From: Eledone cirrhosa
Lineage: Eukaryota
Assembly (NCBI GenBank): GCA_964016885.1
Contig: OZ024753.1
Location: 42,904,001 to 42,968,000 of the forward strand
DNA length: 64,000 bases
Direction: 5' to 3'
The notes below the pieces were generated by a model, which was not told where the DNA came from, searched no databases, and was given only the letters and a program-made list of their open reading frames with translations. The translations under genes and the position numbers were made by a program. Of the stretch, positions 12,383 through 40,742 are shown in pieces. The first letter of the stretch is position 1. Every line of letters begins with the position of its first letter.

Positions 12383-12635
12383 GAAAAAGTATGACCCCGA
12401 TGGCAGAGCTCAAGCCGTTTCGACGGCTATTTCTGTCCAGAAATAGCCGTCGAAACGGCTTGAGCTCTGCAGTCGGGGTCATACTTTTTCCTATTTCCCA
12501 CTCTACTACCCTAAGTATTGAGTACTCTGGTGCGTTATGGTCCATCTGGTTCCGTACCACAATTCCTTTGTTATCCCGGGTTCAATCGGGGGTAAACACA
12601 GTAAGTAAAGTACTCAATACAAAGTAGAGTATAAC
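12383..12635 (+). mobile_element. Fold-back element family A, copy 1 (palindrome 12383-12490 plus 3' extension)
   Basis: Arms ...GAGCTCAAGCCGTTTCGACGGCTATTTC / GAAATAGCCGTCGAAACGGCTTGAGCTC..., preceded by (TA)n. The extension is shared with the other copies. Confidence 0.8.
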
Positions 12636-12696
12636 TATTTAATATAGAAAAGCTTCTACAGGACTAGAACTGTTTTATTCGGGAGAAATCATCAGG

Positions 12697-12747
12697 AGCT
12701 TCCTGATGATATCTCCCGAATGAAACAGTTCTAGTCCTGTAGAAACT
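12697..12747 (+). ncRNA. Type I hammerhead ribozyme motif in the right arm of palindrome 12638-12760
   Basis: AGCTTC-CTGATGA-T-ATCTCCCGAAT-GAAA-CAG-ttctagtc-CTG-TA^GAAACT. Helix III is ACAG/CTGT. Helix I is AGCTTC/GAA(A)CT, and the mirror arm has a perfect GAAGCT. Helix II is weak. Confidence 0.7.
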
Positions 12748-13460
12748 TTTCTATATTAAACATATATATATATATATATATAAAATGTTCTTTATAAATA
12801 ATCTTTTGGGGAACATATATACATTCCAACGTTGTAGTTGTCTGGTAAGTAACATAACTTGAGACAATGTGTTGAAACTAAAGTAATTACAGTGTAGACA
12901 AATCATTTTAACCATTCACAAACTCTTAACTTCACTTCACATCATTTATTCCTTGGTGTCAGAAATTTCGTCCTATTGTCTGTGATTTGGTTCACTAGAA
13001 AACAGTGTCATGAAAACACGAAATAAATATTGACACCAAGAAAAAAATGATATCGTTAAAGTAAAGTGTAAATGTTTGTGTGTTTTTGTATGACAGAAAT
13101 GATTGTTACACGATATAATATACATTTCGTTTTCGTCTCAGTATTTACTTGTCCTAGGCCGCCCTCTATATACTAGGGATGATTCTTCCCCGCTTTTATC
13201 ATTCTCTTTCTTTGAAAAAACTCGGATGTTTTTAACCTGGAAAGGAATGAGCATCGTCAGGTTTAAAATACCCAAGATGTCACCACAGTTTACCCAGGAT
13301 TCTATCAGGGTTTACGTTGGTGCCCATGGATATATGGAAAGTTAATTAATTTCAAGTGGAATATTTATTAATTTTATTTGTCTGAAATGTTATCATAATT
13401 GGAAGTATATATACATATTACTGAGCTTTCCTGACCAAATATATATATATATATATATTA

Positions 13461-13498
13461 TGAGCTGAGGATCCGCTAATGTGAAACAATTGTTCTCG
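13461..13498 (+). ncRNA. Minimal hammerhead-like motif in a ~70 bp insert between (TA)n tracts
   Basis: TGAG-CTGAGGA-TCCGCTAATGT-GAAA-CAATTG-TT^CTCG. Helix I is TGAG/CTCG, helix III is the self-complementary ACAATTGT, helix II is degenerate. Confidence 0.55.
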
Positions 13499-14259
13499 GT
13501 ATGGTGAACTAACTGTTGTGTAACCATTTATATATATATATATATATATATATATATAGCCAGAATCAGTTCCCGTATGAGCAAGACGAGGTCAGCCGAC
13601 CGGACACTGCCCACAACAGGACAACTCATCTAACCCATGCTAGCGTGGAAGAACGGACGTAAAACGGTGATGATGATGATGATATATATATATATATATA
13701 TATATAACTTTCTTTTCCTAAATTCCACTCAAGGACACTTACCCAAGGTGCCGTATTAGAGGATTGAACCCAAGACGATGTGGTTGCGAAGTGAATTCCT
13801 TAAACACACAGCTATATCTGCACCTATATACCTACCTATATATATATATATATATATATATATATTGAGAGAGAGAGAGAGAGAGTTATCCTTGCATTTG
13901 GCTGCCACTGTGTAATTTGATATTCCAACTTCATTCTGATCAGTTTTAAGACCCACTTTCAATGTATGGAATAAACAAGTTGTATTATGCAAAAGAATGT
14001 AGATTGGTAAAGCGTGTATAGGAATCGAATCTGATTTACATTAAATTATTGATCCGTAAAGGAGGAATGCATTGGCAGCATTTAGATTTAATCGTGATTA
14101 TCCATAACTGTATGTTTAATAAAACTGACATATTGACAAGATAAAAACAAAAATAGCTCGGCTTTAGAAAAAAAAGCTTAAACATATTAGATTTCTTGCA
14201 ATAAACTTAGACAAAACCACGATTACTAGTGTCACATTTTATTAAAATATTTTAAAAAA

Positions 14260-14830
14260 GAAATAACACAACAGCAACATAAAAATCCCAATAAATTCAG
14301 ATCTCAATCCTTCATACATGACTACCACTACTACTACTACTACTACCAATAATAATAATAATAATATTTATGTATTACTGTGTATTCTAAACACACAAAG
14401 TAAAACTAATTCCTTTAATAACCAAAAAATAAAGTAAAAAAATAGAAAAGAAAAATAGTGTCGCAATTTATTGAAATAAAATCCACAACAAAACAACACA
14501 ACACAAAAACAACCATATTAAAATCACAAATTTCAGATCTCAATCCTTCATACATTACAACATTACTACTACTAATAATAATAATATTTATGTATTCTTG
14601 TATATTTTAAACACAAAAAAGTAAAACTAATTCCTTTAATAACCAAAAAGAAAAAAAAACCGTGTCGCAATTTATAAAAATAAAACCCATAAGAAAACAA
14701 CTACAAACATATAAAAATCACAACAAATTTCAGATCTCGCTCCATCATACATTACAACCATAATATAATTATTATGCCTTTCCGTATATTTTAAACATAA
14801 AAGTAAATATTTCCTTAAATAAACAACAAA
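14260..14830. repeat. Three degenerate tandem repeats of roughly 200-240 bp
   Basis: Recurring TTCAGATCTC..TCC.TCATACAT and GTGTCGCAATTTAT. Confidence 0.7.
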
Positions 14831-15497
14831 GAAAAAAGTTTTACATTTTCGACTTTGATTTCCACATTTTTTTTTATTTTGTGTCTTGGATTATTCTTGC
14901 AAAATGTCAAAATAGGAATTTAATGGGTTTACAAAGATTACGTAAAGAAACTATTCTGATAAATTTGACAAGCAAAGGTAATGCAGCTGGTTTAAAGAAG
15001 CAACAAATACATAACCCCCTTCCTTCCCCAAGAATGGTCCAACTGTGTGTCTGTTTAAATAGTAATATATATATATATAAGCAAATGTGTGTGTGTGTTT
15101 AAATAGTTATATATATATTATATATATATATGAATATATATGTGTGTGTGTGTTTAACAAACGACACAATATGAATCGGAAAAGGATTTGATTGGTTCTT
15201 TGGAAAGGACCCCCCCCCCGTCGGATTCGACGTTCAATCAACGGAACGGAACATCATGCTTGTGAAAGGAAGGTGTATATGACTGCTGAAATTTCTACAA
15301 ACACGTGTACCCCTTAATAAATCACTCTGGGTTAACATAATTAACAGATATACAATTCCTGCTGATACGTGCAGATACACAATTACTGTAGATACGTGAA
15401 AAATAAAGTGATGTCCCATACATGATGCTACAGAGTTGTGTGTGTGTGTATATATATATATATATATATATATATATATATATATTGTATATACTAT

Positions 15498-38638: not shown

Positions 38639-39379
38639 TTGCCAGGTGGTGCTATTAAGTTAGACATGGCCTGGGCCAATACTGGCCGAAACCTATCAAA
38701 GTTATATAGATATGTATACATACTTATATACACATATATTCATAAATATACATATATATACACACACACACATATATGTATATATATACATATATATATA
38801 TTCACAAAAGGAGATGATGAAGGACCATGACAAGTGGAGAGATTCTGTGCTGAATAGGACCCGTCTAACCCTTGCAAGCAGGGAAAAACGGACGTAAAAT
38901 GATGATGATGATACATACATACCCTCACACGTACATACAAACATATCATAAATACGAATTTGAAAATAGCAATGTATCAATACCTAGGGACTCCATTAAC
39001 AATTACATTTAATTACGTATTTTAAATGGATTAAACTATTTGATATTAATTATAGCGTTAGCCAATCATTTGCTGATTAATTCCTTGAAAAAGTAGTTCA
39101 TTGTTCGAAATATAAAGCTAACAAAACACTGTCTTGAAGCAAGTAACTGACCTATTTTCAAATTGAAATGCAAACGAGAAATATTTAATGTATATTCCCT
39201 CCATTTTATTTCTGTTCTATCATTTTATTTATTCATATTAAATTAATTTCTAATCTCCTACTGATTACTAAGTGTGGGTTTGAGCAGAAGAAGGGTGCAA
39301 ACCTCTTTACAGAAGGTATAACTCGATTGAAAACATAATTTTATCACATGATCTCTGTTTGCAGCAATAGCTATATATA

Positions 39380-39702
39380 TATCATCATCATAATCATCAT
39401 TTTACGTCAGTTTTCCCTGCTTGCAAGGGTGGGATGGGTCCTATTCAGCATAGCATCTCTTCACTTGGTATGGTCCTTCATCATCTCTCCGTGAGCTTCA
39501 GCATCCTGAGGTCTGCTCTCACCACCTCCACTCATATTTTTCGTGGTCTTCCTCTACTGCATCATCCTTCTACTGGGATTTCTTGGCACTTCTTTACCCA
39601 GCGGTCATCCTCCATGCGCATCACATGTCCATACCATCTCAGTCTTCTCTCCTGCACACCACAACTTATCTCCCTTATATCCAGTTTCTCTCGCAACTCG
39701 TC
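39380..39702 (-). mobile_element. RTE LINE 3' fragment
   Basis: Minus strand reads ELREKLDIREISCGVQERRLRWYGHVMRMEDD...GRPRK, with tail CCCTTGCAAGCAGGGAAAA..GACGTAAAA(TGA)n. Confidence 0.85.
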
Positions 39703-39824
39703 TATATATAAAGAAGGAAGCATATGTTTTTAGATATTTTCTCCTGAATCATTACAGGATGTAATATTGAGATATTTTAAATTTTCATACAAAGTCTCTT
39801 TACATCTCGTGTTTTCTATTTCAG

Positions 39825-39912
39825 CTTACCCCAGCAGGGCTTACAGCTAAATGTGATGTTGCAAAGAAAACAGAAAATAAAATGAAGAACCGATATGGTA
39901 ATATTGTAGCAT
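39825..39912 (+). CDS. PTP domain exon LTPAGLTAKCDVAKKTENKMKNRYGNIVA(Y), KNRY pTyr-recognition motif
   Basis: ttctatttcag acceptor and GTAAGT donor. 88 nt, phase 0 to 1, with the NKMKNRYGNI motif. Not in the ORF track; translated by hand. Confidence 0.95.
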
Positions 39913-40434
39913 GTAAGTAATATTTTCTATTGGGGGAGAAACTTATAAGTAAAAATACCTCAGATGTTACTGAAAGAAACAAGAGAAATGATGAATAATT
40001 AAGATTAAACTCTACTTTACTAAGTATAATTAACTTTATAAGATTGATGAGGTTCAGCACATCCTTATCTTCTTGTTTTACTTAAAATTGTTACCTAGCA
40101 TCGATATACAATGTTTTCTTTATCCCACATGTTTAGTATTGATATACAATGTTACCTCTGTCCCACATGTTTAGCAGTGATACACAATGTTACCTCTGTC
40201 CCACATGTTTAGCAGTGATACACGATGTTACCTCTGTCCCACATGTTCAACATTAATAAATCCTGTTTCTTCTATATCCTACATGTTTGGCATTGGTATA
40301 CAACGTTTCCTCTGTGCCACATGTTTAACATTTATATACAATGTTTCCTTCATGTTGTTGTTCTGTGCATGTTCCCTACATGTTCTCTACATGTGTATTA
40401 CTGAACACTTGTGTTATTCCTGTGTATTTTACAG

Positions 40435-40508
40435 ATGATCACACCAGGGTAAAATTAAATATTGAGGATGATCCACATGATGATTATATAAATGCTAACT
40501 ATATAGAT
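40435..40508 (+). CDS. PTP domain exon (Y)DHTRVKLNIEDDPHDDYINANYID
   Basis: ttttacag acceptor and GTAAGT donor. 74 nt, phase 1 to 0. Contains the DxxRVxL and DYINA motifs. Confidence 0.96.
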
Positions 40509-40639
40509 GTAAGTACCTTCAAATCTGTTGGAATGTCTTATATGTGTTAACTATGGGTTAAGGGTTAAGGGTTAACATCCCTTCGGTCACAAATGACCAT
40601 GGGATGGGCATCTAGAAAGTTCCCCTTCGAGGCACAACA

Positions 40640-40742
40640 CTTGGGGTAGTAGAGTATGGTTATATTATACCGAATTAGGACCCGACAGCTGAGCTCTTGC
40701 TGTTGAAACAGCAGCAAGAGCTCAGCTGTCGGGTCCTGACTC
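40640..40742 (-). mobile_element. Family A, diverged copy
   Basis: AGGACCCGACAGCTGAGCTC...GAGCTCAGCTGTCGGGTCCT palindrome with part of the extension. Confidence 0.65.

Follow-up and report, generated by a model that had tools for sequence, protein, structure and literature searches.

Short repeats built around the 3' half of a hammerhead ribozyme motif, here called family A, occupied seven sites in a 64,000-nucleotide stretch of the Eledone cirrhosa genome (assembly GCA_964016885.1, contig OZ024753.1, positions 42,904,001 to 42,968,000 of the forward strand; hereafter the window). Judged from protein motifs and repeat layout, the arms of family A are almost certainly fragments of the pseudo-long terminal repeats (pLTRs) of a Hydra-clade Penelope-like element (PLE) with a predicted reverse transcriptase (RT) and GIY-YIG nuclease in one frame, both domains being named by motif. 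It is probable that each inverted pair entered a TA repeat through two reverse transcription events, which started from two fixed sites and likely ran off the end of the template within helix II of the hammerhead. An earlier note, made from the letters of the window, had described the hammerhead halves and missed that their source is a Penelope-like retroelement.

Non-inverted arms ran upstream through a non-coding stretch of ~1.1 kb to a frame whose end was of the GIY-YIG type, and a protein search located open frames of 784, 788 and 786 codons at three loci (L101-L103). There the RT frame lay between two motif-bearing repeats; a truncated copy in inverted orientation adjoined the upstream one, and TA repeats bordered the whole. 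The distance from ribozyme to ribozyme in L101 was 3,527 bp, a unit of ~3.5 kb. By motif only (FDIESYY, YRDD and YIG), these frames comprise an RT followed by a C-terminal GIY-YIG nuclease. The protein also bore RWR at position 38, DKT at 118, CxCx5C at 573, CxxC at 671 and CxH at 699, and such marks (RW[KR], DKT, CxCx5C, CxxC, CxH) are listed for the Hydra clade by Craig et al. 2021 (PMC8557442; here and below, statements on published work concern the portions of each source that were available). Homologues numbered 279 at E <= 1e-20 among 6,989 candidates, with identities of 36-54% among the 120 matches listed, and the named homologue clusters (3 of 7 looked up) belonged to the corals Acropora and Stylophora and the jellyfish Sanderia. 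Insertion into (TA)n, pLTRs with a hammerhead, an adjacent inverted 5'-truncated copy, a one-ended tail and the union of RT and C-terminal nuclease in one frame are all shared with that clade. Family A differed in the length of its unit (~3.5 kb, where members are generally under 3 kb), in its tail (~80 bases, compared with 30-40) and in its ribozyme, which has a U3-A8 core where the clade typically has the canonical CUGANGA, together with a ~60-base helix II domain and a 9-base helix III loop. All Hydra rows of the hammerhead table in PMC8557442 have CTGA cores, and the motif of Hydra-1_Obim is likewise canonical and different from that of family A.

A whole type I hammerhead pattern (YUGANRA, GAAA, NUH), its core of the U3-A8 kind, is present in the long copies, and self-cleavage is predicted for it; such a core is an active natural variant (PMC3088659). 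The pattern ACCCC-gap-CGGCTA-gap-GTCGAAAC matched 6,037 times in the genome and its control 0 times, the core of the older CCGG subfamily being recovered with a looser pattern, whereas CTGANGA <=35 bases upstream of an arm gave just 54 matches, with mixed spacers and with helix I unchecked. From 100 captures we hand-picked 47 intact copies for a core alignment, leaving out palindromic captures and near-duplicates. Core columns were U3 in 41, U4 in 47, G5 in 44, A6 in 46, A8 in 44 and A9 in 47 of these copies, while position 7 was free (T16 G13 A11 C7); a core that stays constant from one subfamily to the next while position 7 varies freely is the pattern expected from selection on a hammerhead. 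The 3-8 pair was U3-A8 in 38 copies, U3-G8 in two and unpaired in seven, never C3-G8 (0/47), and G10.1-C11.1 was found in 42. Variants of the 3-8 pair also marked subfamilies of intact repeats, one with C3-A8 (L081, L009, L100) and one with U3-G8 (L020). When five intact copies were folded, the lowest-energy structure was a three-way junction in L102, L103 and L001 and nearly so in L194, and helix pair probabilities in L103 were 0.71-0.99. Two copies were predicted to fold into a double hammerhead through their self-complementary loop (-67.3 vs -50.8 kcal/mol), which would explain why its GAGCTC is retained. The window copies were correctly read as 3' halves of a hammerhead-type motif. The earlier expectation that a CCCC-CTGANGA segment would lie upstream in non-inverted copies held for the CCCC-led catalytic half and failed for its core, which is UUGANAA.

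Covariation in helix III, which the earlier note had put forward, did not stand. Genome counts were 52,421 for CGGC/GCCG, 12,814 for CGGC/GCTG, 2,234 for CAGC/GCCG, in which the pair is broken, and 271 for CAGC/GCTG, so that the double change was rarer than independence predicts (484 expected; odds ratio 0.50), and both changes are CpG transitions. This, and the fact that GCTG marks a young subfamily whose frames are intact, likely explains the deficit; what had been taken for a wobble intermediate, CGGC/GCTG, is a variant inherited in the young full-length copies L101, L102 and L104. In the 47-copy alignment the same helix III pair was G-C in 37 copies, G-U in four, A-U in one and unpaired in five, and double changes fell almost only in helix II, at three pairs with 8-9 copies each. 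As all of these came from one older subfamily and so distinguish subfamilies from each other, they amount to about three events. Helix cells were paired in 91% of cases, compared with 33-51% in slid controls; the number of covarying pairs was matched by 134 of 500 shuffles, the double changes deriving nearly all from that one subfamily.

Positions below are counted from the G of GTCGAAA (position 0), with the predicted cut after +25. A 32-base arm motif had 32,073 exact matches in the 3.0 Gb genome and its reversed control none, and four looser patterns summed to 67,740 arms (~68,000). Arms were unevenly spread, with 66 in 664 kb of contig C13, whereas four samples of 50 kb each (C2, C5, C10 and C20) had 0, 0, 0 and 6, so the sample taken without regard to the motif (864 kb, these samples plus contig C13 around the window) represents mostly C13. 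In one set of sequencing data, which may come from the very sample that was assembled, contig depth at the core was ~20-fold below that at helix III, a ratio that gives no copy number and is not counted as support.

The inverted pairs had one fixed layout. With a strict tail test applied over all loci, 84 of 100 short pairs joined a tailed arm to a short one, one joined two tailed arms, none joined two short arms, and 15 were untyped; a looser test, which mislabelled at least one arm, underlies the counts on subfamily agreement and on the 864 kb sample. In that sample all 24 typed pairs were tailed plus short (four untyped), the core was present in 0 of 72 arms, and 63 of the 72 began at -22 to -6. 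Short arms ended at +45 to +48 in 75 of 83 cases and tails at about +124, and the same layout held in insertions that are kilobases long. At the 5' side, truncated arms began most often at -15 or -14 (75 of 262), within a conserved T[TC]AGT motif of helix II whose T-17, A-15 and T-13 were invariant in all 47 intact copies while the adjacent apical stem varied; we take this motif to resemble the initiator consensus TCAKTY. The tailed arm reached further 5' in 43 of the 84 pairs, the short arm in 32, and the two were equal in nine; in 19 of 83 the short arm was ahead by >15 bases, and in long insertions either arm may exceed its partner by kilobases (L104, L109). Arms were short together or long together: among the matches listed, 40 of 100 intact arms stood in inverted pairs with both arms intact and 0 in the opposite orientation, although intact arms make up roughly 9% of the total. 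Subfamily agreed within pairs in 73 of 94 cases (shuffled mean 21), and the arms of one pair differed at 4.2 of 47 sites (9.9 when shuffled). As the earlier note had proposed, each palindrome arose separately, 81 centres being distinct among the 84 pairs and the three repeated ones each joining different subfamilies.

On balance we favour two primings, one per target end. An endonuclease would cut (TA)n on both strands, each resulting 3' end would prime one cDNA, one at +46 and the other at +124, and both cDNAs would then run off the 5' end of the RNA at the initiator-like motif in helix II (the weaker part of the scheme) before being linked head to head, at junctions that show little microhomology. 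The element's RT would in this way copy just the first ~60 and ~140 RNA bases into the two cut ends. We suggest tentatively, and short of an even chance, that the shared stop marks the 5' end of a transcript beginning at the T[TC]AGT motif, in which case the short copies would be without a catalytic half since that RNA never held one. The Penelope repeat contains an internal promoter (PMC2377424), and the Poseidon PLE of Anolis (Frangieh et al. 2024, PMC11167929) cuts an AT-rich target in vitro and, using uncleaved RNA, begins the extension of both strands at two internal RNA sites, which define its tail; its protein is predicted to be a dimer. Poseidon differs in that neither strict one-site-per-arm pairing nor a shared 5' stop is reported in the portions of that source available. 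A fuller scheme, rather unlikely as a whole, would have the mRNA start at the initiator in helix II, so that its capped 5' end is a harmless half-ribozyme while the whole 3' ribozyme trims the RNA; an RT dimer would use two leader sites for priming, one for each DNA strand, and 'strong-stop' cDNAs of ~60 and ~140 bases would be joined head to head when not passing to a continuous or circular template.

Fold-back, proposed in the earlier note, would here mean that a single cDNA begun at the tail-end site halts near helix II, folds onto itself, copies itself to +46 and joins the other target end. It would account for the near-perfect symmetry of the arms, their agreement in subfamily, the nearly private insertion present on both arms of the pair at 26584-26795 and the commonest junction, of 24 bases, at which the tailed arm was longer in 6 of 8 cases. 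A simple fold-back nevertheless fits poorly: the arm that extends further 5' may be the tailed one or the short one (43 vs 32 of 84), also by kilobases in the long insertions, and the 3' ends differ in a fixed way; a copy templated by the short arm could not acquire the tail. We regard it as unlikely. Copy-specific variants in both arms had been described as well, and the insertion is one: it occurs in just four arms genome-wide, two of them in that pair. Most differences from the subfamily type were specific to one arm (192 unshared vs 45 shared). If each RT stalled independently at helix II in its folded state, in about nine of ten passages along full-length RNA, the stop zone would lie where it does, just past the 3' strand of helix II; the coupled fates of the arms and the passage of all six copies that reach a second ribozyme through it make this very improbable. 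A stall common to both RTs on one folded RNA is possible.

Copying of the whole palindrome from a few masters, as a small non-autonomous element resembling a miniature inverted-repeat transposable element (MITE) or a short interspersed nuclear element, would suit the tens of thousands of copies, the fixed tailed-plus-short layout and the peaks in centre length at 24 and 29 bases. Given the distinct centres, the different subfamilies united at each repeated one and the same layout in kilobase-long insertions, we consider it highly improbable. As for MITE identity itself, the ends are unequal, 81 of 84 pairs have centres of their own and the parent encodes an RT-type frame. Long palindromes are unstable, and some copies have microhomology deletions (25818-25850), as would follow if long inverted insertions had been trimmed centrally after insertion; such trimming leaves the sharp stop at -15/-14 unexplained, short pairs match young full-length copies at 95-100%, and the chance that it formed the pairs is slighter still. 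The slenderest prospect is retention of the halves as substrates for a catalytic strand in trans, a role that the earlier note had suggested from a half comprising GAAA, helix III, the GUC triplet and a helix I strand. It found no support: a transcript across a pair was predicted to fold into a single long hairpin (-97 to -121 kcal/mol), CpG decay resembled that of unselected DNA, and broken pairs exceeded compensated ones 8 to 1.

Several observations weigh against the reading of these arms as PLE fragments laid down by two primings, or against parts of it. Pfam and PDB searches of the protein returned no meaningful RT or nuclease match; the domains are therefore named from motifs and from the description in PMC8557442. 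In one subfamily the core has a C3-A8 mismatch (6 of 100 captures), its representative L081 failed to fold into the three-way junction, and folding z-scores of intact copies were weak (-0.15 to -2.04). All six 5' repeats that enter the frame (L095, L101-L103, L105 and L168) extend past -15, L105 as far as -49; a start at -15 therefore cannot be the sole template, and the long copies require another, either read-through or circular. Of truncated arms, 61 of 262 match past -15, partly by chance. L103 has two short outer ends, and the share of intact arms among all arms, roughly 9%, divides counts from patterns of unequal strictness.

The window is AT-rich and rich in microsatellites, and family A lay between 12379 and 40737 (Table 1), as six inverted pairs and one single arm. 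Seven sites had been reported before, all as palindromes; the count stood, and the site at 15595-15655 is the single arm. The layout given in the earlier note, GAAA-CGGC-nnGAGCTCn-GCCG-TC-GGG or a near variant, was read in 12 window arms, and GAGCTC was retained in all 12 arms that bear helix III, also as claimed. The palindromes are lopsided, one arm stopping at TTCC|TATA and its partner running ~80 bases longer. Neither CTGANGA, whose absence had been noted, nor TTGANAA occurred in any of the seven regions, from which the catalytic 5' strand is absent, and tblastn of the RT frame against the window found no coding piece of the parent element. An Rfam scan of the window gave no known hammerhead family among the 150 of 427 weak matches listed, which were hairpin or microsatellite matches below gathering score. 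On their own, the seven sites are ordinary retroelement debris.

Table 1. Family A in the window (positions counted from the first base of the stretch)
Feature	Position	Strand	Details
Inverted pair	12379..12573		short arm - (12379-12435, TA-repeat end); tailed arm + (12436-12573)
Single short arm, older CCGG subfamily	15595..15655	+	5' end at A of AGT motif (-15); 3' end at TTCC|TATA
Inverted pair, CCGG subfamily	23108..23313		short arm - (23108-23162); tailed arm + (23176-23313)
Inverted pair, young GCTG subfamily	24901..25093		tailed arm - (24901-25035, 95% like L102); short arm + (25039-25093, 100% like L102)
Inverted pair	25740..25950		short arm -, reach about -30; tailed arm + (25818-25950), with loss of GAAA and helix III between a pair of GCCGTC words
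Inverted pair	26584..26795		short arm - (26584-26646); tailed arm + (26654-26795); nearly private one-base insertion in both
Hammerhead 3' half	26673..26700	+	GAAA, helix III with self-complementary loop, GUC triplet (predicted cut after 26695), 3' strand of helix I
Tail of ~80 bases	26717..26795	+	in full-length copies continues into the leader of the RT frame
Decayed inverted pair, divergent subfamily	40635..40737		CAGC/GCTG and a lost G common to both arms; right end in CT repeat

Other inverted pairs were present nearby. The pair at 26194-26424, from another family with TA-repeat ends, keeps a canonical CTGAAGA...GAAA hammerhead-like motif in each of its arms (26378 on the + strand, 26240 on the -). 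In a short pair of a third family (12638-12762), CTGATGA follows the centre within a few bases on either arm; stop sites may differ from family to family. A minimal hammerhead-like motif on the - strand at 15690-15775 (CTGATGA...GAAA, with an 8-base helix I match and a folding z-score of -2.29) recurs next to arms in L002 and L005. Further fold-back palindromes adjoining TA repeats (56946-57150 and 60182-60241) were unrelated in sequence to family A. From 48816, a GC-rich tandem array with a 47-base period ran for about 3.8 kb (about 76 register copies), and a 93-codon open stretch at 35822-36100 on the + strand presumably resembles the C-terminal part of an RTE-type protein of long interspersed nuclear elements.

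Inverted truncated copies, one-ended tails, TA targeting, pLTR hammerheads and U3-A8 cores are already in print. Known U3-A8 hammerheads (the Cercyon PLE of Schistosoma, PMC4209133; natural variants, PMC3088659) share with family A the swapped tertiary pair, G10.1-C11.1 and a palindromic helix III region for dimer folding, and pairs of such motifs on opposite strands 100-700 bp apart have been noted. Unlike the U3-A8 hammerheads described in those sources, family A has a stable helix III of five pairs and a Hydra-clade host, and about nine in ten of its arms are without the catalytic half. Non-LTR retrozymes (PMC7229834; bioRxiv 10.64898/2026.07.22.740005) are likewise non-coding, related to hammerheads and derived from PLEs; they are head-to-tail tandems with whole ribozymes, whereas family A forms head-to-head pairs without the core, and we found no head-to-tail tandem monomers with a whole ribozyme that would make it a retrozyme. 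In the literature searched, including that preprint and the available parts of the PMC8557442 supplement, we found no description of family A, of strict tailed-plus-short pairing or of a stop in helix II; Repbase, Dfam and subscription papers lay outside this scope, and the family may be catalogued there.

The origin of inverted copies and tails in PLEs, and the role of the hammerhead, are presented as open questions in PMC8557442 and PMC11167929. With intact frames, tens of thousands of junctions, a fixed layout of one site per arm and a sharp shared stop, this family makes models of these features testable, and it illustrates that searches for CUGANGA overlook thousands of U3-A8 motifs in one genome. 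If the fuller scheme were true, the mini-palindromes of family A, which number in the tens of thousands, would preserve like fossils a history of abortive strong-stop integration, and the tails, inverted copies and ribozyme conservation of PLEs would be covered by one scheme.

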